Of a DNA stretch of 64,000 nt, positions 4,470 to 37,663 are shown one piece after another. This DNA is from an uncultured Candidatus Rokubacteria bacterium (GTDB lineage: Bacteria > Methylomirabilota > Methylomirabilia > Rokubacteriales > CSP1-6). The translations under genes and the position numbers were made by a program. Below the pieces are notes generated by a model, which searched no databases, was not told where the DNA came from, and saw only the letters and a list, made by a program, of their open reading frames with translations. The stretch spans positions 512,001 through 576,000 of the forward strand of contig CAVXJS010000009.1 of NCBI GenBank assembly GCA_963762145.1, read 5' to 3'. How positions within the stretch are numbered: position 1 is the stretch's first letter; every line of letters starts with the position of its first letter.

Positions 4470-5405
4470 ATGATCGCCTGGCTGGTGCTGCTGCAGGCCT
4501 CGCTCACCATCGCGGTGGCCGGGCCGCCCACCTCACCGGAGTACCTGCCGCTGCACGTGGCCCAGGCCGAAGGCCTCTTCGCCGCCCGGCAGATCTCGGT
4601 GACGCTCCGGTCCACGCGCTCGGACGTCGCCGCGGCCGAGCTGCTGGCCGGCGGGCAGGCGCAGCTGGCGGCCACCTCGCTCGACACCGCGCTGCGGATC
4701 GGCGGGGCCGCGGGCGTGCCGCCGCGGCTCGTCTGGGCCCTCACCGCCGCGCCGCCGGTCGCGCTGCTCGCCGCGCCCGGCCGCGCCGACACCATCCGAT
4801 CGGTGGCCGATCTGGCCGGCCAGACCGTCGCGGTCCCGGCACCCGGCAGCGCGGAGGACATGGCGCTCGGGCTGCTGCTCGCCCGGGCGGGCGTGCCGCT
4901 GCACCTTCTCAAGATCCTGAGCCAGGGAGAGCGCGGCGTCGTGCGGGCGCTCGAGGGCGGCGAGGTGGCGGCCGGCGTGCTCGGAGAGCCGTACGTGAGC
5001 CGGCTGGTCGAGAGCGGCAAGGCGGTGATCGTGGTGGACCTGCGCACCGCCAAGGGTGCGGCGGACGCGCTCGGGGGCCCCACCGTGGGCGCGGGACTCT
5101 TCGCGAAGGCCGGCGCCGAGCCGCCCGCGGCGACGATCCATGCCTTGCGGGCCGCGCTGCAGGCCGCGGTGGCCCGAACGATCTCGGCCGAGCCGGCCGC
5201 GCTCGCGGCTCGGCTTCCGTCGTCGGTCGTCGGGTCGCCGGCCGATTTCGCGCTGCGCCTTCAGGGCGCCCGTGACCTCTTCCTGGCCGACGGCCGGGTC
5301 ACGGTGGAGACGCTCGAGCACAGCCTCGAGCTGATCCGGACTCGCGCGCCGCTTCCCGTGAAGGTGAAGCTGCCCCGGCGGACCGAGCAGCTCCTCGTCG
5401 AGTAG
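4470..5405 (+). CDS. Orphan ABC substrate-binding protein, NMT1/THI5/SsuA-like
   Basis: YLPLHVAQAEGLF, IRSVADLAGQTVAV..PGS, EPY; no adjacent permease. Confidence 0.7.
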   Translation: MIAWLVLLQASLTIAVAGPPTSPEYLPLHVAQAEGLFAARQISVTLRSTRSDVAAAELLAGGQAQLAATSLDTALRIGGAAGVPPRLVWALTAAPPVALLAAPGRADTIRSVADLAGQTVAVPAPGSAEDMALGLLLARAGVPLHLLKILSQGERGVVRALEGGEVAAGVLGEPYVSRLVESGKAVIVVDLRTAKGAADALGGPTVGAGLFAKAGAEPPAATIHALRAALQAAVARTISAEPAALAARLPSSVVGSPADFALRLQGARDLFLADGRVTVETLEHSLELIRTRAPLPVKVKLPRRTEQLLVE

Positions 5406-28885: not shown

Positions 28886-30199
28886 TTAGTCGCCGACGAG
28901 CTCGTAGCCCTCGACCTCGACGATGGCGACCTCGGCGAAGCGCCCCGGGGTGAGCGCGCGGTCGCGCAGCAGCACCACGCCGTCGATCTCGGGCGCCTGG
29001 CCGGCGGTCCGGCCCTCGAAGGGGAACGCGGGGTCCGCGCTCGGCCCGTCCACCAGCACCGTCTGGCGGGTGCCCGAAGAGCGCCTTCTGGCGGGGCCAC
29101 GCCAGGCGGTCCTGGAGGTCCTGCACCTGCTGGGCGCGCTCGGCCATGACCTCGGCCGGCACCTGATCCGGCATGTCGGCGGCCGGCGTCCCCTCCTCCA
29201 CCGAGTAGGTGAAGACCCCGAGCCGGTCGAAGGCCACGTCCTCCACGAAGCCGAGCAGATTGTGAAAGGCGGCCTCGGTCTCGCCCGGGAACCCCACGAG
29301 CACGGTGGTGCGAAGCGTGACGCCGGGGATCGCGTCCCGCAGCCGGGCGATGACGTCCAGCATGCGCCGCGCGGTGACGCCGCGGCGCATGGCGCGCAGG
29401 ATCCCGTCGTCGCCGTGCTGCACCGGCATGTCGAGGTACGGCACCACGCGCGCGCGCTGCCACTTGGCGACGAGGCGGTCGGTGACGTGCGCGGGGTGCA
29501 GGTACATCGGCCGGATCCACGGCATCGTGGTGTCGGAGAGCGCCAGCAGCAGGTCGCCGATGTCGCCGTTGCCTGGGAGCTCGCGGCCGTAGGCCAGCGT
29601 GTCCTGCGAGACCAGGATCGCTTCCTGGACCCCGCGGCGCGCGAGCCCGTTGACCTCGGCCACGATGTCGGCGAGCGGGCGGCTCCGGTGGCGCCCGCGG
29701 AACTGCGGGATCGCGCAGAACGTGCAACCCATGTCGCAGCCCTCGGCGATCTTCACGTAGGCGTAGGGCACGCGCCCGGTGAGCAGCCGCGGGGTCTGCG
29801 CGTCGTACAGGTAACCGGGCGGCGCCGCGCTCACCCACGCCTGCCGCCCGTCGGCCTGGTTCACGAGCTCCACGATGCGGTGCAGCTCCGAGGTCCCGAG
29901 GATCGCGTTGATCTCCGGGATCTCCGAGCGGATCTCGCCGCCGTACCGCTGGGTGAGGCAGCCCGTCACGATGAGCGACCGGGCCCGGCGCCGCGCTCCT
30001 TGAGCTGCGCCAGCTCGAGGATCGTGTTGACCGACTCCTCGCGCGCCCGGTCGATGAACGCGCAGGTGTTCACCACGAGGCACTCGGCGGTCTCCGCCGT
30101 CTCCACGATCTGATGCCCGGCCTCGGTCAGCATGCCCAGCATCAGCTCGGAGTCGACCTGGTTCTTGGGGCAGCCGAGGGTCGTGAAATGGACTTTCAT
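28886..30199 (-). CDS. rimO: Ribosomal protein S12 methylthiotransferase; indels
   Basis: LGCPKNQVDSE, VNTCAFI, YVKIAEGCDMGCTFC radical SAM motif, TRAM domain (QAPEIDG). Confidence 0.93.
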
Positions 30200-30262
30200 G
30201 ACGGGGTGTTAATGATCCCACACCCTCTCCGGCGGCGTCAAACGTAGCCCTCGGAACCTTCC

Positions 30263-30291
30263 TTGACGTCACCCGGTTGAGTGGTTACCGT
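30263..30291 (+). promoter_or_regulatory. sigma70 promoter TTGACG-N17-TACCGT, 7 nt before ATG 30299 (leaderless)
   Basis: ttgacg 30263-30268, taccgt 30286-30291, ATG 30299; no SD sequence. Confidence 0.6.
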
Positions 30292-30298
30292 GTCGCGT

Positions 30299-30811
30299 AT
30301 GCTGCGGATCGATCGCATCTCCTTGGCGCTGCTGCTGTCGCTGGCCCTCCTGGCCATCGCCGGCCCGGCGGCGGCCCACGTGGCCTCGCCGGCAGCTTCC
30401 GCCCCGATCGTCCCGACGCCGGAGGCCCCCGCGCTGATCCCGACCCTGACCGCGGCCCCCGCCGCGCCCACGCTGTCCTGGTATCTGCCCGCGGCGCTGG
30501 TCCTCGTAGCCCTGATCGCCTGGCGCGGTCCGCGGCGGGTCATGATCGTGACGCTCGCCCTGCTCCTCTGTGTCTTCGCCTTCGAGGACGCGCTGCACTC
30601 GGTGCATCACGGCTTCGATCCGAAGCAGCAGGAGGCGTGCGCGGTGGCCGCGGCCACCGCCAATCTGACCGCCGTGCAGGCGGACGATCCCGGCCTGTCT
30701 TCCGTCGTGCTCCCCGTCGTCGGTCGGCCCACGACCGATCCGGCCGCGTCCGGCCCGACCCGCTTCCTCAGCCCCGACCAGGGGCGCGCTCCTCCCTCCG
30801 CGATCCTGTAG
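30299..30811 (+). CDS. Putative regulatory leader protein with a C-terminal RAPP arrest motif (CruR/CutF/DUF2946-like)
   Basis: Signal peptide (AAA/H), 2 hydrophobic segments, HSVHH...C motif, ends QGRAPPSAIL; sits directly upstream of tonB and the TBDR gene. Confidence 0.65.
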   Translation: MLRIDRISLALLLSLALLAIAGPAAAHVASPAASAPIVPTPEAPALIPTLTAAPAAPTLSWYLPAALVLVALIAWRGPRRVMIVTLALLLCVFAFEDALHSVHHGFDPKQQEACAVAAATANLTAVQADDPGLSSVVLPVVGRPTTDPAASGPTRFLSPDQGRAPPSAIL

Positions 30812-30913
30812 TCCCGCCGCGGTCTCCCGACGCCCCGCGCGCCTCGTGCGCCGTGGCCAGCGGGTGTCCCGGCTGTCGCGGCTCCAATCCTGGCCTTGCG
30901 GAGGGAAGCGTTC

Positions 30914-31678
30914 GTGCTCAACGAGCTGTCGTGGCGGCGTGCGATGCCGATCGGCCTGTCCTGCGTGCTGCACGTGGCGCTGGTCACCGGTCTCATCGTG
31001 GGTCAGCACTGGGTGACCAGCGTGGTGGCCGTTCAGCCGCCGGTCCTTCCCGTGCAGCTGGTCACGCTCGATGCCGACGAGCCACCGCGCGAAGTCGCGC
31101 CTCCGCCTCCGCCACGACGGGAGCGGACGGCCTCGGTCCGGCGATCGGAGCGGCCCCGGCCATCGGAGGTCGCCCCCGCGAGGGTCGAGGAGCCCGCGCC
31201 GCAGCCCGTCGCGCCGACGCCGGAGCCGGTGCGGGAGCCGACGGAGATCGCGCCCGCGACGGTGGCTACCCTGCCGGCCATCAGCGAGCCCGCGCCGGCG
31301 CCGGCCTCGTCGGCCCCCGCGTCCAGCAGTCCGACGGTCGCGCTGCCGGCATCGGCCCCCGTGGTGGCCGCGAAGCCCCCGACCGCGGCGCCCGAGGGCA
31401 TCACCCGCACCGCGCGGCCGCAGGGCGGATATCAGGTGCGGCCCACCTACCCGACCGCGCCGAGGCGGCTCGGCATCCAGGGCACGACGCTCCTGCGCGT
31501 GCACGTGCTGGCGGACGGACGCATCGGCGACGTGCTCGTCGAGAGCTCGGCCGGCCACCCGGATCTCGACGAGGCCGCCATCGGGGCCGTCCGGGGCTGG
31601 CGCTTCGATCCGGCACGCCGGGGCAACGAGCCGGTGGCCATGTGGGTGCTGCTCCCCGTCGAATTCCGACTCAGGTGA
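30914..31678 (+). CDS. tonB: TonB energy transducer
   Basis: SCVLHVAL TM motif, Pro-rich linker, PTYPTAPRRLGIQG, SAGHPDLDEAA, WRFDPA. Confidence 0.9.
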   Translation: MLNELSWRRAMPIGLSCVLHVALVTGLIVGQHWVTSVVAVQPPVLPVQLVTLDADEPPREVAPPPPPRRERTASVRRSERPRPSEVAPARVEEPAPQPVAPTPEPVREPTEIAPATVATLPAISEPAPAPASSAPASSSPTVALPASAPVVAAKPPTAAPEGITRTARPQGGYQVRPTYPTAPRRLGIQGTTLLRVHVLADGRIGDVLVESSAGHPDLDEAAIGAVRGWRFDPARRGNEPVAMWVLLPVEFRLR

Positions 31679-31691
31679 GGAGCCCTGGCTC

Positions 31692-33813
31692 ATGACCCGA
31701 CCCTCGCGTCTGCCGTTCCTCGCCGTCCGTCGCCGTCCTCCTCACCGCGGGCGCCGTCGGCGCGCAGGCCCCGCCCGCGCCGCCCATCCTCGAGCCGGTG
31801 GTCGTCGAGTCGAGCACCCTGCCGCCCGAGCGCACCCGCACCGAGGAGCAGGCGCGCGAGGAGATCGACCGCACCCCCGGCGGCGTCGCGATCGTCCCGC
31901 AGAAGGCCATCGAGGAGTCGCGCGGCGCCAACCTCAAGGACGTGCTCGACTTCGTGCCCGGCGTGCTGATCCGACCGCGCTTCGGCGCCGCCGACGAGAG
32001 CCAGTTCTCGATCCGCGGCTCGGGCCTGCGCAACAACTTCCACCTGCGCGGCATCAACGTGCTGATCGACGGCTTCCCCTACGGCAACGCCGACGGCTTC
32101 AGCGACTTCGAGTCGCTCGAGCTCCTGACCACCAAGTACATCGAGGTCTTCAAGGGCGCCAACGCGCTCCGCTTCGGCGGCAACACCCTGGGCGGCGCCA
32201 TCAACCTCGTCACCAAGACCGGCTACGACGCCGGCCTCATCGAGAGCCGCGTCGAGGGCGGCTCCTACGGCTTCTTCAAGGGCTACGTCGCCACCGGCCA
32301 GGTGTACGGCCCGCTCGACCTCTACGCGAGCTTCAGCGACACGGAGCTGCAGGGCTACCGGGAGCTACAGCCAGCAGACGCGCTACCGGGCCTTCGGCAC
32401 CGCCGGCTACCAGCTCTCCGGCGGGAGCCACGCTCCGCTTCGACCTCGGCTACGTGCACAACAAGGAGCAGCTCCCCGGCGCGCTCACCCCGGAGCAGTT
32501 CCGGCAGAACCCCCAGCAGCAGAACCCGGCGACCAAGCTTCGCCAAGGAGGCGCGCAACTACGACTACACCCGCGGCGCGCTCACGCTTCCGCACGCCGC
32601 TCGGCGAGAACCAGGCCTTCGAGTGGGCGACCCAGCTCAACTACCAGGACCTGGACCACCCGCTCTCCTTCGCGGTCATCGACGAGACGACCTACAGCTA
32701 CAGCACCGAGCTGCGCTACCTGCGGTCGGCGCCGCTCTTCGGCCGCGGCAACCGCTTCACCGCGGGCTTCCAGTTCTTCGGCACCAGCCAGACCGACGCC
32801 CAGTTCCAGAACGTCAACGGCAACCGCGGCTCCATGGTCAAGAACCAGGTACAACGACGCGCAACACCTACGGGATGTACGCCGAGAACCAGCACGACGT
32901 CGTGCCCACCGTGGCGCTCGTGACCGGCGGGCGGCTGCAGGTCACCGACGATCGCGGTGCGCGACCAGCTACCTGGTCAACGGCAACCAGTCGGACTCGA
33001 CCGGCTTCTTCGGGGCCTCGCCCAAGGTCGGCTTCGTCTGGCGCGCCGCGCCCACCGTGCAGGTCTTCGGCAACGCCAGCCGCGCCTACGAGCCGCCCCT
33101 GCTGCTCGAGCTGACCGCGCCCGGGCAGATCGGGGGCGATCTCTCGCAGCTCGACGCCCAGACGTCCTGGCAGTTCGAGGTCGGCACGCGCGGCCAGTGG
33201 GGGGAGCGGCTCAGCTGGGACTCTCGGTCTACGACATCGAGCTGTGGGACGAGATCCAGAACGTCAACGTCCAGCCCTTCCCCGGCGCCCCGTTCACCAT
33301 CCCCCGCTTCCAGAACATCGACCGCTCGCGCCACACCGGCATCGAGGTGGGCGCCGATCTGCTGCTCGTGAAGGACATCGCGGCCGCGCCTCGGGCTCGG
33401 CCGCCTGGGCGACACCCTCCGGGCGCGCGTGGCCTACACGTGGTCGCGCTTCGTCTTCGTCGACGATCCGGTGTTCAACGACAACGACCTGCCCGGAGCG
33501 CCCGAGCACTTCATCAACACCGAGCTGCGCTACAGCCACAACTCGGGCTTCTGGATCGCGCCGGGCGTCGAGATCGTCCCGCGCGGCTACTTCGTCGACA
33601 GCGCCAACACCACGCGCACGCCGTCCTATACACTGGTCAACGTCAAGATGGGCTTCGACTACAAGCCGTGGAACCTCGGCGTCTTCTTCGAGGGACGGAA
33701 CCTCACCGACAAGAGCTTCGTCTCGGCGGTGGCGGTGGACGACGCCAACCGGAACTACTTCTATCCCGGGCGACGGGCGAGGCTTCTACGGCTCGGTCGC
33801 ATGGAGGTGGTAG
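31692..33813 (+). CDS. TonB-dependent outer-membrane receptor; many indels
   Basis: TonB box EPVVVES, plug (SIRGSG, LIDGFP, IEVFKGANALRFGGNTLGGAINLVT), GRNLTDK, terminal aromatic YGSVAWRW. Confidence 0.9.
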
Positions 33814-33815
33814 CG

Positions 33816-35037
33816 ATGCGCGGACGATTGCTCCCCATCCTGGCGCTGCTGGCGGTGGCCGCCCCCGCCCCCGCGGCCGAGCTCGACCTCGGCCCGCGGC
33901 TCGAGTACAAGCACGTCAGCCGCGGACACGAGTTCCATCTCTCCGGCGCGGCGGTGGCGGCGGGGACGGACGGCAAGCCGCTCGTGACCTGGGCCGCCCA
34001 GGAGGGCCACGCCAACCAGCTCTATCTCCTCCGGATGGGCGACGGGGCCACACCGGTCCGGGTGAACCCGGAGGCGCTCACCGTCGAGGCCCTCCATCAT
34101 CCGCCCCGGCTGGCGGTCGGGGGCGGGCAGGTCTACGTCTCCTGGTCGTCCGGAAAGCCCAAGCCCGAGGGCACGCTCTTCGCCTCCGACCTGCAGCTCT
34201 CCCGATCGGGCGACGGCGGGCGGACCTTCGGAAACCCGCTGCGCGTGAACGAGGACCGGCCGATCTCCCACTCGTTCGACGGTCTCGCCCTCGCGGCCGA
34301 CGGCACCGTCGTGCTGACCTGGATCGACGGGCACGAGGGGCGCAAGGATCCCGCCACCTGGGTCGCGCGCGTCGTCGAGCAGGGCACGCGCGTGGAGGGC
34401 ATCCGCAAGGTCGGCGACGATACCTGCGTGTGCTGCCGCGTGGACGCGGCCACCGGCGCCGGCGACACGGTGGCGCTCACCTGGCGGCGGGTCTTCCCGG
34501 GCGACATCCGCGACATGGTCCTGTCCGTCTCGCGCGATGGCGGGCGCACCTTCGGCGACGCCAAGCTGGTGAGCGCCGATCACTGGAAGATCAACGCCTG
34601 CCCCCACCGCGGCGGCGCGGTGGGCCTGGACGCGAAGGGCCGCGTGTACATGAGCTGGTACACGGAGGGCAGCGACATCCGGCCCGACCTGAAGTTCGCC
34701 ATCTCGATGGACGGGCAGCGCTTCGGGCCGCGCCAAGCGCCTGCACACGTCGGCCACCTCCATTCCCGATCAGGCGCGCATGGCGGTGGACCCGGCGGGC
34801 CGCGCGGTGATCGTGTGGGAGGAGTCCACCGCGGTGCGCCGCCGCATCCTGCTGCGCTACACCCTCGACGCGGGACGGACCTTGAGCCCGATCCGCGTGC
34901 TGTCCACCGCCATCAAGGCCTATGCCCCCGACATCGCCTTCGCGCCCGACGGCGGGTTCCTGGTCGCGTGGCACGAGGAGCAGTTTCCCTTCCTCAAGAC
35001 GGTCGTGCAGCCGGTCCGCCTCCCGAGCGCCCGATGA
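33816..35037 (+). CDS. Secreted BNR/Asp-box (sialidase-like beta-propeller) protein with CxCC and CPH motifs; one indel
   Basis: SGDGGRTF and SRDGGRTF Asp-boxes, TCVCCR, NACPHRGG, signal peptide. Confidence 0.75.
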
Positions 35038-35417
35038 AGCTCGCGGTCCTGGCCGTCCTGGGTATGATCGGGGCATGCCTGGCGGGGCTTCCCGACGCGC
35101 ACGCGCACGCCATCATCCTGGAGTCCGCCCCGCGCCACACCGAATCGCTGGCGAGCCCGAAGCGCCTCGTGCTGCGCTTCAACAGCCGCCTCGAGAAGCC
35201 GCTCTGCTCGGTGCAGCTCATCGGACCGCGCCAGAAGACCATCGCCCTGCTGCGCCAGGAGCCGGATTCCCCGGCCGACACCCTCGCGTACACCCTGCCC
35301 CCGCTCGATCCGGGCGCCTACCAGGCGCGCTGGAAGGTCATGGCCGCCGACGGCCACGTGACGGAGGGCATCGTGCTCTTCACGGTTGCCGGGCCGGAGC
35401 CGACCGGGCCCCGGTGA
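35034..35417 (+). CDS. copC: CopC periplasmic copper-binding protein (1)
   Basis: AHA/HA N-terminal His, LRFN, WKVMAADGH. Confidence 0.88.
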   Translation: MKLAVLAVLGMIGACLAGLPDAHAHAIILESAPRHTESLASPKRLVLRFNSRLEKPLCSVQLIGPRQKTIALLRQEPDSPADTLAYTLPPLDPGAYQARWKVMAADGHVTEGIVLFTVAGPEPTGPR

Positions 35418-35430
35418 GGTGGCGCGCCCC

Positions 35431-35820
35431 ATGACCCGCGCGAGCCGGTGGCGGGGTGGGGCGCTGGCGGTCGCGTGGCTCGCCGCGCTCGCCTGCCCCG
35501 CGCCTCCCGCGGCCGCCCACGCCTCGCTCGTGCGGTCGACGCCCGCGCACCGCGCGGTGCTGGGCCAGATGCCGGAGCGCGTGCAGCTCTGGTTCAACGA
35601 GCGCCTCGAGCCCGCCTACAGCACGGTGTCGGTGTGGAACGAGGCGGGCGCGCAGGTGGACGCGCGCGACGTGGCGGTGGGCCCGGACGATCCGCGGCGG
35701 CTCTCGGTCACGGTGGAGGCGCGCCAGTCCGGCCTCTACACCGTCAAGTACCGCGTCCTCTCGGTGGACGGCCATATCGTCGACAGCCGCTTCTCGTTCA
35801 CGGTGAAAGCGTCACAGTGA
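35431..35820 (+). CDS. copC: CopC periplasmic copper-binding protein (2)
   Basis: AAA/HASLVRSTP, LWFNE, YRVLSVDGH. Confidence 0.9.
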   Translation: MTRASRWRGGALAVAWLAALACPAPPAAAHASLVRSTPAHRAVLGQMPERVQLWFNERLEPAYSTVSVWNEAGAQVDARDVAVGPDDPRRLSVTVEARQSGLYTVKYRVLSVDGHIVDSRFSFTVKASQ

Positions 35821-35832
35821 AAGGACCCGCTC

Positions 35833-36387
35833 ATGACTCGACTCGATAGCCGGATGCGCTCGTTTCTTGTGATCGCGGTCGCCGCCGCCGCGGTGGGCCT
35901 GGGCGCCGCCGCGGGCTGGGAGGCGGTGCGCGCCCAGGGCCACTCCCACGGCCACACCCACGGCGCGGCGGACCCGGGCGGCTGGTACAAGCGCCTGTCG
36001 GCGGACGCCCGCGCCGCCGCCATCGAGCGGCAGTTCGGCGGGTTCGAGACCGCGATGGCCGAGGTGTCCTACCGCTACATCGAGATGTACTTCGGCGCGC
36101 TCGACGGCAACTGGGACTACGCCGGCCACATGGGAGCCACGCTGGCGACCGCGCTCGCCAGCGGACTCGAGCGGCGGCCGGCCCTCCGGAAGAACGCGGA
36201 CGCGCTGTTCCTCAAGGGGCCGTATCCGCAGGTGATGGACGCGATCAAGGCGAAGGACCTCGCCCTGTTCAAGCAGCGGTTCGAGACGATGCGCGCGGCG
36301 TGCACCGCCTGCCACGCGGCGGAGCAGCACGCGTTCATCAAGATCGGCGTGCCCACCGTGCGGCGGAACCCGGTGGTGGCCAACTAG
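35833..36387 (+). CDS. Monoheme c-type cytochrome (cytochrome c'-like, C-terminal CxxCH) with a His-rich N-terminus
   Basis: Signal/TM segment, GHSHGHTH, ACTACH near the C-terminus. Confidence 0.75.
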   Translation: MTRLDSRMRSFLVIAVAAAAVGLGAAAGWEAVRAQGHSHGHTHGAADPGGWYKRLSADARAAAIERQFGGFETAMAEVSYRYIEMYFGALDGNWDYAGHMGATLATALASGLERRPALRKNADALFLKGPYPQVMDAIKAKDLALFKQRFETMRAACTACHAAEQHAFIKIGVPTVRRNPVVAN

Positions 36388-36410
36388 CGTCGCCCCTCCC
36401 GGTTGGACCA

Positions 36411-36445
36411 CCCCTCACCCTGCCCTCTCCCCTGAGGGGAGAGGG
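36411..36445. repeat. REP-like palindromic element between convergent genes
   Basis: cccctcaccctgccctctcccctgaggggagaggg. Confidence 0.85.
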
Positions 36446-36469
36446 AGGGGAGGAGGCGCAGGGCGCGCC

Positions 36470-37663
36470 TTAATACCGGTCGGGGAACTGGGTGACGATG
36501 GCCTCGGCCAGCGGGTCCGCGATCATCTGCATGTGACCCGCGCCGGCGCGCACGGCCGTGTAGGCGCGGCCCTGGTCCTTGGCCGCCTGGGCGTCGATCA
36601 CGTTCTTGAGCGTCACCACGTGGTGCTTGACCAGCTCGGCCACGACCGTCTTCGGCAGGCCCGGATTGGCCGCCGACAGGAAGGCGCCGAAGTCCTGCGT
36701 GTAGCCGATCAGCTCGGTCACCGCCCGGTCCTGCTTGGCGCGGTCACCGGCGGCCGCGCCGACCGTGTAATCCACCACCATGCCGATGTGACGGCGCCAG
36801 AGCGGCAGGAATGCCTGCTCGGCCTCCACGCCGTAGACGGAGCCGATGGCCTTCGAGATCGCGACGGAGTTGGCGTCCAGCGCGCCGGCCGCCGCCTTGA
36901 ACTCCGCGTCCCGGCCGCCCAGCGCCGCGTTCGTGGCGGCGGACGCCAGGTAGACGTGCTCGCGCAGCGCCAGGTTGAGCGCGGTCCGCAGCGACGCGGC
37001 CGACGCGTCGGGCGCGCCCGCGATCTTGTCCGGGAACTGCTTGACGATGGCGCCCGCCAGCGGATCCGCGATCATCTGCATGTGTCCGGCGCCGGTCCGC
37101 AGCGCGGTGAACGCGCGGTCCTGGTCCCGCGCGCTCTGCGCGTCGATCACCGCCTTGAGCGTGAGCACGTGGTGCTTCACGAGATCCGCCACGACGGCCT
37201 TGGGCAGGTTCGGATTCGCTCCGGCGAGGAAGGCCCCGAAGTCCTGCGTGTAGCCCACCAGATCGCTCACCGCCCGATCCTGCTTCGCGCGGTCGCTCGT
37301 CGCCGCGCCCGCCGTGTAGTCCACCACCATGCCGATGTGCTTGCGCCAGAGGGGCAGGAACGCCTTCTCCGCGTCGGGCCCGTACACGGAGCCGATCGCC
37401 CGCGCCACGTCCACCGAGTTGGCGTCGAGCGCCGCGGCGGCGGCCTCGAACTCGGCCTGACGGCCCGCGAGGGCCGCGTTGGTGGCCGCGGCGGCCAGGT
37501 AGACGTGCTCGCCCAGGAGCGCGTTCAGCCCCACGCGGAGGGCCGCGGCGGGCGTGGCGGACGTGGGCGGGTTGAGCCGCGCCGCCCAGACGTCGCCGCC
37601 GCCCATCGCGGTGACCGCGAGCACTGCGAAGCCTCCGATCAGTCGAATCATCGTGCGTTTCAT
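36470..37663 (-). CDS. Secreted protein made of two tandem helical His-rich domains
   Basis: Signal peptide; two closely similar copies of about 175 aa, each with EHVYL, LWRxHI, KHHV and GHM. Confidence 0.8.
   Translation of the reverse strand: MKRTMIRLIGGFAVLAVTAMGGGDVWAARLNPPTSATPAAALRVGLNALLGEHVYLAAAATNAALAGRQAEFEAAAAALDANSVDVARAIGSVYGPDAEKAFLPLWRKHIGMVVDYTAGAATSDRAKQDRAVSDLVGYTQDFGAFLAGANPNLPKAVVADLVKHHVLTLKAVIDAQSARDQDRAFTALRTGAGHMQMIADPLAGAIVKQFPDKIAGAPDASAASLRTALNLALREHVYLASAATNAALGGRDAEFKAAAGALDANSVAISKAIGSVYGVEAEQAFLPLWRRHIGMVVDYTVGAAAGDRAKQDRAVTELIGYTQDFGAFLSAANPGLPKTVVAELVKHHVVTLKNVIDAQAAKDQGRAYTAVRAGAGHMQMIADPLAEAIVTQFPDRY

Follow-up and report, generated by a model that had tools for sequence, protein, structure and literature searches.

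A RAPP-terminated His/Cys leader protein, probably a metal-sensing arrest peptide, heads a TonB/CopC copper-uptake operon and represents an unannotated family of Methylomirabilota

To our knowledge, CruR and CutF, two proteobacterial proteins that behave in opposite ways, are the only ones for which it has been worked out how a nascent leader peptide exerts copper-responsive control. CruR (Bp2923) of Bordetella pertussis is the prototype of DUF2946 (PF11162); it heads a gene for a TonB-dependent receptor (TBDR) and is released by copper, and the spacing from CxxC to RAPP in DUF2946 is given as 45 +/- 1-2 residues (PMC9426467). CutF of Rhodobacter capsulatus, also a DUF2946 protein, is described as a co-translationally exported nascent chain that senses periplasmic copper and whose C-terminal proline stall controls a stem-loop that covers the next gene's Shine-Dalgarno (SD) sequence (bioRxiv 10.1101/2025.02.05.636593). 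The class of RAPP leaders as a whole was already described by a 2025 survey, according to which small proteins that are secreted or membrane-bound carry RAPP or RGPP close to the C-terminus and are enriched upstream of genes for TBDRs, YcnI, PCuAC and PepSY. In that work, copper sites were proposed at His (and Met or Cys) residues that are conserved among transmembrane RAPP/RGPP proteins, and His-based sensors were proposed for Streptomyces proteins, SLIV_18480 and SLIV_16130 of Streptomyces lividans among them (PMC12992588). The family reported here is most likely a His-based Methylomirabilota variant of this known design.

We analysed a window of 64,000 nt from an uncultured Candidatus Rokubacteria bacterium (GCA_963762145.1, contig CAVXJS010000009.1, positions 512,001 to 576,000), in which an ORF of 170 aa at 30299..30811, with a TAG stop at 30809-30811, probably acts in cis as a metal-sensing arrest-peptide leader that sets the expression of a copper-uptake operon encoding TonB, a TBDR and CopC. 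All of the features given below are on the plus strand. High-GC DNA is rich in long spurious frames, and a chance open frame is conceivable in DNA of 72% G+C; this reading was refuted, to the point of being hardly credible, by a GC3 of 0.90 against a GC2 of 0.56 and by hundreds of homologs with conserved residues, length and synteny. The ORF was also unbroken in independent metagenome contigs. No meaningful match to the protein was found in Pfam and NCBIfam, with no Pfam family at E<=0.01 and generic transmembrane families only at E<=1. The protein is an abundant hypothetical one, wrongly labelled as 'fumarate reductase subunit D' in some sources.

A signal peptide was predicted for residues 1-26 (30299..30379 together with H27), within which the AlphaFold2 model forms a helix at residues 4-20. 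A26 and H27 were invariant among 34 relatives, fitting an A-x-A cleavage that would expose H27 (30377-30379) as the putative mature N-terminus. Two hydrophobic helices follow at approximately residues 59-76 and 79-104 (30473..30610), modelled at 62-76 and 79-104 and joined by an R-G-P-R-R loop, the second of which continues into E96-x3-H100-S-V-H103-H104. The motif D97-A-L-H-S-V-H-H104 is followed after 9 residues by C114 (30638..30640), 48 residues separate C114 from R163, and the C-terminus reads GRAPPSAIL. The model adds a fourth helix at 115-125 and leaves the chain mostly unstructured, with a mean pLDDT of 71.4 and a pTM of 0.33. The ORF length, the DALHSVHH-x9-C motif and the GRAPPSAIL end listed in the first-pass annotation are thus read directly in the translation, while its signal peptide exposing an N-terminal His and its two hydrophobic helices agree with the invariance of A26-H27, the cleavage itself being predicted, and with the modelled helices, respectively.

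The leader is a member of an unannotated His-based family that is absent from Pfam and found across the soil phylum Methylomirabilota. A search with the leader yielded 273 homologs, and a profile built on it matched 656 cluster representatives at E<=1e-3, of which 307 reached E<=1e-10; as with the other counts given here, the relatives are kin and the numbers overstate independence. Matches were found in 96 of the 251 Methylomirabilota genomes (23 of 68 genera) and in 20 of the 20 genomes scored within the source organism's own genus, and a locus search with two narrow patterns returned 17 loci, all from Methylomirabilota-type MAGs, a few of them under other NCBI labels but on contigs that had come up in the phylum search as well. 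Across 145 relatives of 26-71% identity, H100, H103, H104, C114, R163, P165 and P166 were invariant and E96 and S101 were conserved at >=90%. The HxxHH motif was HSVHH in 118 of 140 relatives, the spacing from Cys to Arg was 48 residues in 112/140 and 47-49 in 137/140, and that from HxxHH to Arg was 56-59 residues in 135/140. The joint conservation of HSVHH, a single Cys and RAPP that had been anticipated for homologs was therefore borne out, with a fixed spacing in addition. In one genus, short forms of ~100 aa lacked the signal peptide, H27 and the first helix and kept HSVHH-C-48-RAPP.

RAPP, encoded by the codons CGC GCT CCT CCC at 30785..30796, was present in 118 of 120 homologs among the matches listed, in all 49 family members of 40 fetched loci and in 140 of 150 cluster representatives, which places the motif beyond chance. 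The other ten representatives comprised four with RGPP, one with RSPP and five without the motif at their ends, which look truncated; in the 140, the distance from RAPP to the stop was 1-8 residues. RGPP and RAPP are reported to be strong arrest cores and RSPP and RDPP to be partly permissive (PMC12992588). The motif, its invariance and these RGPP/RSPP substitutions mark the leader as a candidate RAPP-type translation arrest peptide. Loss of RAPP among homologs had been named beforehand as a finding that would tell against this reading; R163, P165 and P166 held throughout the 145 relatives. Adopting the stall register described in PMC10951233 and PMC12992588, we predicted a P-site codon of CCT (30791-30793) and an A-site codon of CCC (30794-30796).

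The arrest peptides ApdA, ApdP and SecM share with the leader the RAPP core (RAGP in SecM) and a position upstream of the regulated gene, but they are described as monitors of protein export that precede sec or yidC genes and carry no metal-ligand motif (PMC10951233). A phmmer search of the leader protein against PDB chain sequences returned nothing at E<=10, and hence no similarity to these arrest peptides beyond the core. The likeness to SLIV_18480 and SLIV_16130 is at the class level and by description (PMC12992588). The main text of that survey contains neither 'Methylomirabil' nor a point on anti-SD pairing or codon usage.

The comparison with CruR is more extensive. Both are small exported or membrane proteins whose gene opens an operon that also encodes a TonB-dependent transporter, both carry, a few residues from their end, an invariant RAPP with a metal-ligand motif at a fixed distance upstream of it (45 residues in CruR and 48 in the leader), and both are followed by a long spacer with a C>G stretch (162 and 102 nt, respectively) (PMC9426467). 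On the other hand, the leader has no CxxC, its invariant ligands being E-x3-H-S-V-H-H and one Cys. It appears to carry an extra N-terminal module consisting of a cleavable signal, an N-terminal His, a Pro/Ala linker and an additional helix, and it comes from another phylum, with a leaderless-type promoter and with tonB rather than the receptor as the first regulated gene. The first-pass annotation had called it a divergent metal-sensing arrest peptide, with DUF2946 uORFs as the precedent. The conservation of RAPP, of the His and Cys ligands and of the operon linkage supported the functional side of this reading, but no homology to DUF2946 was detected. PF11162, with a gathering cut-off of 23.7 bits, did not match the window's leader protein at E<=1, matched none of the 145 family members at the cut-off (8/145 at E<=1, the best at 22.7 bits) and had no match above the cut-off in the window's genome. 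In the phylum, 1 of 251 genomes had such a match (25 bits), to a divergent member that also weakly matched the leader-family profile. An hhalign comparison of the 145 leader sequences with 9 betaproteobacterial DUF2946 sequences, a small set drawn from annotated proteobacterial replicons that may miss a distant relation, aligned only 20 C-terminal columns covering the RAPP tail (probability 2.7%, E 0.017). A word-based search that took a relative's RAPP peptide of the CxxC type as its query, to find DUF2946 sequences, gave no match. In an Atlas look-alike search the named cluster closest to the leader was DUF2946 (0.82), followed by DUF2607 (0.81); both are under the level that counts and therefore leads only. 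Judged from these sequence comparisons, the leader is a protein that would work like CruR and CutF and is not a detectable member of DUF2946.

The leader is co-oriented with the operon that it heads, 102 nt 5' of tonB (30914..31678; Pfam TonB_C, 4.2e-20), which begins with GTG at 30914-30916 and is the gene that the first-pass annotation had placed there. It is followed by a gene for a TBDR with domain matches to the Plug domain and barrel (31798..33810), a gene for a BNR-like beta-propeller protein of ~410 aa (33816..35037), whose orthologs match BNR_2 below threshold, two CopC genes identified by domain matches (35034-35417 and 35431-35820, together 35034..35820) and, as the last operon gene, a gene for an exported protein of 184 aa that contains GHSHGHTHG as well as CTACH at its C-terminus (35833..36387), whose position is conserved in orthologous loci. 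The receptor gene lies in several frames in this assembly and shows single-letter indels against short-read contigs of three studies, in view of which its interpretation as a pseudogene was dropped in favour of assembly indels; the single frame change of the beta-propeller gene, near 34731, is likewise seen as an indel against short-read contigs.

Linkage of homologs to metal-uptake genes, the absence of which had also been named as contrary evidence, was found in ~36 of the 49 family members examined, by our reading of the loci. Among these ~36, 26 head TonB, ExbBD or TBDR genes, 6 head a CopD-cytochrome c fusion, and SCO1, a CopC-CopD fusion, PCuAC and ZnuA account for one case each. The 13 members without a clear metal gene downstream were at contig ends, beside unresolved ORFs or in M23 peptidase, TPR or ABC contexts. 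The nearest proteobacterial TBDR, with 31% identity to the window's receptor, has a DUF2946 gene and YcnI in front of it. An RNA-library contig (Logan) of a relative spans the 3' end of the leader into tonB, which is weak evidence, and the RNA-library contigs that cover the 3' half of the leader and tonB may include DNA carry-over.

These contexts bear on a different role for the protein, namely that of chiefly a stable copper-binding membrane component whose N-terminal-His and HxxHH site takes copper from CopC or the receptor, with RAPP serving another purpose or slowing translation for folding or insertion. Its 170 aa, its signal peptide, an invariant A26-H27 like the N-terminal His sites of the CopC type and the two conserved helices would suit such a component, and the leader is longer and more conserved than many leaders. 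However, the ~100-aa short forms do without signal peptide, H27 and first helix and keep HSVHH-C-48-RAPP, the substitutions in RAPP are arrest-competent ones only, the spacing to the C-terminus is fixed, and the same leader heads unrelated operon types. We consider a chiefly structural role quite unlikely. Nevertheless, its length and conservation are high for a pure leader, and it may also act as a mature protein.

Upstream of the ORF, the promoter at 30263..30291 consists of a -35 element TTGACG (30263-30268), a 17-nt spacer and a -10 element TACCGT (30286-30291), and ends 7 nt 5' of the ATG at 30299. This sigma70 promoter, as the first-pass annotation had given it, is read directly in the sequence, and the pattern TTGA[CT]N-N16-18-TANNNT-N5-9-ATG, in frame, was found in 26 of 62 distinct leaders, with a spacer of 17 nt in 24 and 7 nt to the ATG in 24 of these 26. 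A consensus promoter scan of the window did not list the 30263-30291 site, since TACCGT agrees with TATAAT in no more than 3 of 6 positions. The conserved geometry TTGAC-N17-TANNNT-N7-ATG, which is new beyond the first-pass annotation, implies that the leader mRNA would be leaderless or nearly so.

The spacer between the leader and tonB (30812..30913), expected to be C-rich and about 100 nt long, measured 102 nt and, with the last 120 nt of the ORF, forms a C>G stretch in which the C excess reaches up to 20 per 78 nt over 30690-30890. The codons for R-A-P-P-S-A-I (30786..30806) form the 5' arm of a helix in the MFE fold of the window, and with their codon bias are a predicted anti-SD. The 3' arm is TTGCGGAGGGAAGCGT (30896-30911), which contains the tonB SD GGAGGGA (30900-30906) and precedes the GTG (30896..30916 in all). 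The fold has 16 pairs and 2 further pairs with a z of -2.17, and the complementarity in the window reaches well past the SD core. Among family members, the Ala codon of RAPP was GCT in 18/49 and the first Pro codon CCT in 28/49, as compared with 5.1% and 6.1% in neighbouring genes, so that both choices are 7- to 9-fold off genomic usage in the direction that builds CUCCUCCC. The SD paired with the segment from RAPP to the stop in 32 of 50 loci against 15.4 expected under synonymous recoding; Pro-Pro codons are C-rich anyway, which gives some anti-SD character free, and the recoded controls still pair in those 15.4 of 50.

The other RNA comparisons were less favourable to the helix. RNAalifold on 15 orthologous spacers gave neither a RAPP-SD helix nor a consensus long-range helix. 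When the RAPP-SD helix, which was derived from one sequence of the set, was imposed, 67.7% of cells paired as compared with 63.0% in shuffles and 41.6-56.8% when slid, and its covariation score of 0.193 was nearly equalled by a slide of +2 (0.184). The best duplex between the stall segment and the spacer was no better in energy than those of synonymous recodings (1/61 at p<=0.05), a test without signal because GC-rich sequence pairs somewhere whatever the codons. Such negative results, together with a C>G stretch over the 3' end of the ORF and the spacer as in cruR (PMC9426467), leave some room for an output by Rho-dependent attenuation alone as in CruR, with the RAPP-SD pairing arising incidentally where C-rich Pro codons meet an SD rich in G. 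Against it are the Ala and first-Pro codons 7- to 9-fold off genomic usage towards CUCCUCCC, the pairing of the SD to the stall segment at twice the recoded expectation, and a complementarity of 16 + 2 pairs well past the SD core in the window; we see a purely Rho-dependent output as possible rather than expected. In sum, the bias of the Ala-Pro-Pro codons to GCU-CCU-CCC and their pairing with the tonB SD, likewise new beyond the first-pass annotation, are suggestive, and the bias could alternatively reflect tRNA-specific effects on stalling.

The computed results comprise the gene and its family, the residues that do not vary, the constant spacing, the contexts of the operons, the biased codons and the conserved geometry of the promoter. 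From them we infer the stalling, the topology, the metal sensed, the polarity and the output (SD masking, Rho or both) of a metal-sensing arrest-peptide leader as follows. Translation would start on an mRNA that begins at or beside the ATG. The nascent leader would enter the membrane, its signal peptide would be cut after A-A-A, and the two helices would leave the E-x3-HSVHH-x9-C cluster periplasmic; a coupling of stalling to membrane insertion or export is suggested by this predicted topology. With the ribosome at R-A-P and a Pro codon in the A site, the Cys would be ~50 and the His cluster ~60 residues from the peptidyl-transferase centre, so that both would have just emerged. The ribosome halted on RAPP would occupy the A-P-P-S-A codons, otherwise paired with the tonB SD, and would shield the C-rich, G-poor stretch from Rho, such that tonB and the genes behind it would then be expressed. 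Metal bound to the emerged His/Cys cluster would alter the duration of the stall. The polarity most economical for an uptake operon would be that of CruR, in which copper releases the stall; after release, translation would terminate 5 codons on, the helix would close over the SD, Rho may enter and uptake would be off.

The predicted helix over the tonB SD would share the design of that in CutF, and the leader is proposed as a counterpart to CutF in its export, its sensing and its control of the next gene. The opposite polarity could be considered, in which the stall is induced or prolonged when metal binds the His/Cys cluster after its export, and copper turns the operon on; CopC and CopD can indeed serve tolerance as well as uptake. 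The genes downstream, however, are mostly for import (TonB, ExbBD, TBDR, PCuAC, SCO1 and ZnuA), and their induction by excess metal would be harmful; in CruR, likewise at the head of a TBDR, the stall is released by copper (PMC9426467). CutF itself differs in that it combines CxxxC with PPP, depends on EF-P and controls a detoxifying oxidase, with copper inducing the stall (bioRxiv 10.1101/2025.02.05.636593). In the leader, the stall codons themselves are predicted to be one helix arm and the target is an uptake operon. We think a polarity of the CutF type unlikely.

A bolder reading extends the metal-sensing arrest-peptide leader to a phylum-wide Methylomirabilota family of leaderless, membrane-integrated arrest peptides, in which periplasmic metal would be sensed by a His cluster at the end of a transmembrane helix, one Cys and, in the long forms, an N-terminal His. 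In that case the GCU-CCU-CCC stall codons would have been selected as an anti-SD arm, one sensor design would have come to serve six or more kinds of operon, for copper and for zinc, and the long form would perhaps also be a copper-binding partner, both sensor and component. We put this forward tentatively and doubt that it holds in all of its parts.

The leader family would be a natural third design beside CruR and CutF, with three His, one Cys and Glu as ligands. Its ligand-to-RAPP distance is a different one, 48 residues as compared with 45, but equally rigid; its ligands come straight after a transmembrane anchor, its start would be leaderless and its stall codons are apparently the RNA switch itself. 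Simple leader constructs could be used to ask where the force or signal ending a RAPP stall originates, whether the ligand acts outside the membrane, and whether the output is translational, Rho-dependent or both. The finding annotates an abundant hypothetical protein and offers a way into metal acquisition by a soil phylum that is both uncultured and widespread.

The ORF at 30299–30811 (+) translates to a 170-aa leader with GC3 of 0.90 and GC2 of 0.56, the pattern of real genes in the window (71.6% G+C). Its hydrophobic N-terminus ends in A-A-A-H and is followed by a Pro/Ala-rich linker, two hydrophobic helices separated by R-G-P-R-R, a putative sensor consisting of D-A-L-H-S-V-H-H, nine residues and C114, a poorly conserved stretch, and the C-terminus R-F-L-S-P-D-Q-G-R-A-P-P-S-A-I-L directly before the stop, with the RAPP codons at 30785–30796 (+). 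Upstream on the same strand, TTGACG (30263–30268) and TACCGT (30286–30291) are separated by a 17-nt spacer, and ATG 30299 begins after 7 further bases. The sigma70 promoter 7 nt before this ATG, the 170-aa ORF with its two hydrophobic helices, DALHSVHH-x9-C and GRAPPSAIL, and the C-rich spacer of about 100 nt before tonB, all described in the first-pass annotation, were each recovered in place; the spacer measured 102 nt, and across 30690–30890 the excess of C over G reached 20 per 78 nt.

The TTGACG-N17-TACCGT site fails the consensus rule of the promoter scan. The pattern TTGA[CT]N, 16–18 nt, TANNNT, 5–9 nt and an in-frame ATG was found in 26 of 62 distinct leaders, 24 of which had a 17-nt spacer and 24 a distance of 7 nt from the −10 element to the ATG, the sequence of these 7 bases varying among them. 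No Shine-Dalgarno (SD) sequence precedes the leader ATG in the window sequence, and the promoter geometry, as predicted from sequence, is that of a leaderless mRNA. The same strict promoter lies 5–10 nt before the ATG of ∼33 coding-like ORFs genome-wide and is not peculiar to the leader. Facing the MiaB-like gene upstream is a divergent promoter of sigma-70-like type (TTGACG-18-GATCAT, its −10 preceded by TG; 30212–30241, −), in a sequence block conserved in orthologous loci.

The tonB gene starts with GTG at 30914 (+; Pfam TonB_C, 4.2e-20) behind the SD GGAGGGA (30900–30906, +) and is followed by five more genes, encoding a TonB-dependent receptor with plug and barrel, a BNR-like propeller protein of ∼410 aa, two CopC proteins (35034–35417 and 35431–35820) and a 184-aa exported protein (35833–36387) that contains GHSHGHTHG and, C-terminally, a haem-type CTACH motif. 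In Pfam this last protein matches only cytochrome c', weakly (E 0.001), and the position of its gene is conserved in orthologous loci. In the assembly (25 contigs, 6.26 Mb, completeness 88%), the receptor and BNR-like genes (31798–35037) switch frame several times. Short-read contigs from the metagenomes of three studies are one letter shorter than the assembly at 32422, 32586, 32850, 32862/32864, 32955, 32967/32969 and 34731 and one letter longer at 33221, with about ten single-letter indel places in all and no such difference in the leader. Because the contigs differ by single letters, gene decay was set aside, and the frame changes are probably assembly indels, carried by the assembly and not by the organism. 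The MiaB-like gene at 29966–30199 holds an N-terminal domain only and may be affected likewise. Just past the operon, depth rises to 130–240 in the last bin (36306–36500) in all four runs and many loose ends occur at 36406–36447, which suggests that a short element, repeated or widely shared, lies there.

Neither Pfam nor NCBIfam has a family for the leader. A word-indexed search returned 273 homologs at E ≤ 0.01; among the 120 listed, identity to the leader was 58–95%, the few named ones came from Rokubacteria or Methylomirabilota MAGs, and some were mislabelled 'fumarate reductase subunit D'. A 34-member profile searched against 1.84 billion proteins matched 656 cluster representatives at E ≤ 1e-3, of which 307 reached E ≤ 1e-10. 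Among species representatives of the phylum, 96 of 251 genomes (counting one unpublished genome, G076, used for no other result) and 23 of 68 genera had a match, as did 39 of 104 good-quality genomes and all 20 genomes scored in the window's genus. Many phylum genomes carry two to four copies, and the window's genome carries one. A scan of 185,579 species' genomes found 17 loci, all in Methylomirabilota MAGs, some under other NCBI labels on contigs that, judged by their length, the phylum search had returned too; its pattern was narrow and is no gauge of the family's absence elsewhere.

Seven residues (H100, H103, H104, C114, R163, P165 and P166) were invariant in 145 representatives with 26–71% identity to the window protein, and E96, S101 and A164 were present in at least 90%, so that HSVHH, the Cys and RAPP are jointly conserved, as the first-pass annotation would lead one to expect. 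The 34 closer members additionally share invariant A26-H27, W61, P78-R79, F95-E96, D107, D129, R155 and P159-D160-Q161. Among the best 150 of the 656 representatives, the motif was RAPP in 140, RGPP in 4 and RSPP in 1, and the remaining 5 without it look truncated. RAPP lies 1–8 residues from the C-terminus (4 in 69 cases, 3 in 31), 48 residues separate C114 from the Arg in 112 of 140 (47–49 in 137), and HxxHH precedes this Arg by 56–59 residues in 135 of 140. In 40 fetched phylum loci, RAPP plus 1–7 residues ends all 49 members, distant paralogs included. Short forms of ∼100 aa from one genus of small genomes have no signal peptide, H27 or first helix; what remains is a basic N-terminus, a single helix, HS[VAM]H[HN] and the Cys, with RAPP at the conserved distance.

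AlphaFold2 with the 145-row alignment predicted helices at 4–20, 62–76, 79–104 and 115–125 and coil elsewhere (mean pLDDT 71.4, pTM 0.33), so that E96, H100 and H103/H104 would be spaced i, i+4 and i+7/8 where the second helix ends. By the positive-inside rule, R-G-P-R-R would be cytoplasmic and the HSVHH-C segment outside, and the short forms (N-in, one helix) agree. At the predicted stall, C114 and H104 would be 51 and 61 residues from the P-site Pro and therefore just out of the tunnel and translocon. RAPP and RGPP are the strongest arrest cores, RSPP and RDPP being partly permissive, and CruR stalls in the PURE system with motif codons three and four in the P and A sites, according to a 2025 survey (PMC12992588).

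CruR and other DUF2946 leaders, as described in PMC9426467, have an export signal, CxxC and RAPP 45 residues apart within one or two, and RAPP three residues from the end; at the CruR locus the spacer measures 162 nt and contains a C>G 'bubble', and Rho-dependent termination is released by copper. The parallel with DUF2946 uORFs drawn in the first-pass annotation holds for the logic, but not for the sequence. None of the 145 family members reached the PF11162 cut-off of 23.7 bits (best 22.7), and 8 matched at E ≤ 1; of four listed matches at E ≤ 0.05, three cover profile positions 50/53–117 only and the fourth 9–117. Across the phylum, one of 251 genomes exceeded the cut-off, at 25 bits, with a divergent HSVHH-type member bearing a His-rich insert, and one truncated CxxC-type RAPP peptide was found (locus L078). 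From ten PF11162 matches over the cut-off in five proteobacterial replicons, the nine strongest were aligned, and hhalign paired them with the 145-row alignment over the RAPP tail only, the final 20 columns, at a probability of 2.7%. Given these scores and this tail-only alignment, membership in DUF2946 is unsupported, with distant common descent still compatible with the sequences.

To survey genomic context, ORFs were called by GC3, and the co-oriented genes downstream of each member, four at most, were scanned (126 proteins). By our reading, about 36 of the 49 members stand at the head of metal genes, bearing out the linkage to metal uptake. TonB and/or ExbB-ExbD and/or a TonB-dependent receptor are headed by 26 members, usually with a BNR-like protein and CopC next; 6 head a ∼328-aa protein without Pfam or NCBIfam match and then a CopD-cytochrome c fusion; and four single members head, respectively, SCO1/SenC, a CopC-CopD fusion, PCuAC, and ZnuA with ABC-3. 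The remaining 13 comprise 5 at contig ends or without downstream DNA, 2 with ORFs not resolved or scanned, 1 without a nearby co-oriented gene and 5 unclear contexts, including an M23 peptidase, TPR, a PBP-type ABC system and a weak cytochrome c match. The leader, conserved ∼328-aa protein and CopD-cytochrome c fusion form a second recurrent operon type in the phylum (∼328-aa genes at L034:10258–11244 (−), L037:649–1632 (+), L039:4789–5775 (+), L064:7968–8954 (−) and L067:3028–4026 (+)). Several genomes carry two family leaders a few kb apart, which are in tandem within a single TonB-receptor operon or diverge, in which case one heads TonB-TBDR and the other CopD-cytochrome c (L049:3004–3037 and 4537–4567; L051:2998–3016 and 4628–4664; L033, L034, L037 and L039). 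The nearest proteobacterial receptor homologs (31–34% identity) lie on chromids, and upstream of one, from Ralstonia, are an annotated DUF2946 gene and YcnI. In the case of an uptake operon, release of the stall by metal would be the economical reading, by analogy with CruR; the opposite polarity, that of CutF, is possible.

In the fold of 30770–30935 (−81.8 kcal/mol, z −2.17), GCGCU and UCCCUCCGCGA, within the R-A-P-P-S-A-I codons (30786–30803), pair with UUGCGGAGGGAAGCGU (30896–30911), which contains the tonB SD. A ribosome stalled with 30791–30793 in the P site would cover this helix's 5' arm together with part of the C-rich stretch. Codon choice agrees with the pairing: of 49 members, 18 use GCT for the RAPP Ala, 28 use CCT for the first Pro and 35 use CCC for the second, against 5.1% GCT of 19,647 Ala codons and 6.1% CCT of 11,132 Pro codons in neighbouring genes, a bias that might instead serve the stall itself. 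Among the 50 loci with an assignable SD and start, at least 3 SD bases paired with the RAPP-to-stop segment in the MFE fold in 32, against 15.4 expected from synonymous recoding of the segment with local codon usage. Best-duplex energies were no better than those of recodings (1/61), and RNAalifold on 15 orthologous spacers did not find the RAPP-SD helix. When the helix, taken from one of the rows scored, was imposed, 67.7% of cells paired versus 63.0% in shuffles (0/500 as high) and 41.6–56.8% when slid; its covariation score was 0.193, nearly equalled by a slide of +2 (0.184), and the sequences in these tests are kin; these four points were counted against the helix. SD masking by the RAPP codons is suggestive on this evidence.

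Two further RAPP ORFs were seen outside the window in genome G000. One of ∼94 aa (C10:308037–308330, +; L125:547–831) ends R-V-R-A-P-P-R-A directly upstream of a TatA/B/E gene (PF02416, 1.8e-17) and is a candidate RAPP leader of the Tat export genes. The other, of a different family (C11:273491–273889, −; L126:5992–6390), ends A-D-S-R-A-P-P-F-A upstream of a 476-aa protein without Pfam match and then ZnuA and an ABC-3 permease, and could be a leader of zinc or manganese type in the same genome.

The leader class itself is already known from CruR (2022), CutF (2021–2025) and the 2025 survey. The latter, covering 52,895 genomes, reports that across phyla small ORFs with RAPP/RGPP are enriched in front of genes for TonB-dependent receptors, YcnI, PCuAC and PepSY, and proposes His-based copper sites for transmembrane RAPP/RGPP proteins of Streptomyces (PMC12992588); the terms 'Methylomirabil', 'anti-SD', 'Shine-Dalgarno' and 'codon usage' do not occur in its main text. 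Searches of full-text literature on RAPP arrest peptides and copper, DUF2946, and Methylomirabilota with copper and TonB yielded nothing on the present family. What is new is the leader family as such, the set of ligands and their spacing, the range of operon types it heads, the leaderless promoter and the codon bias.
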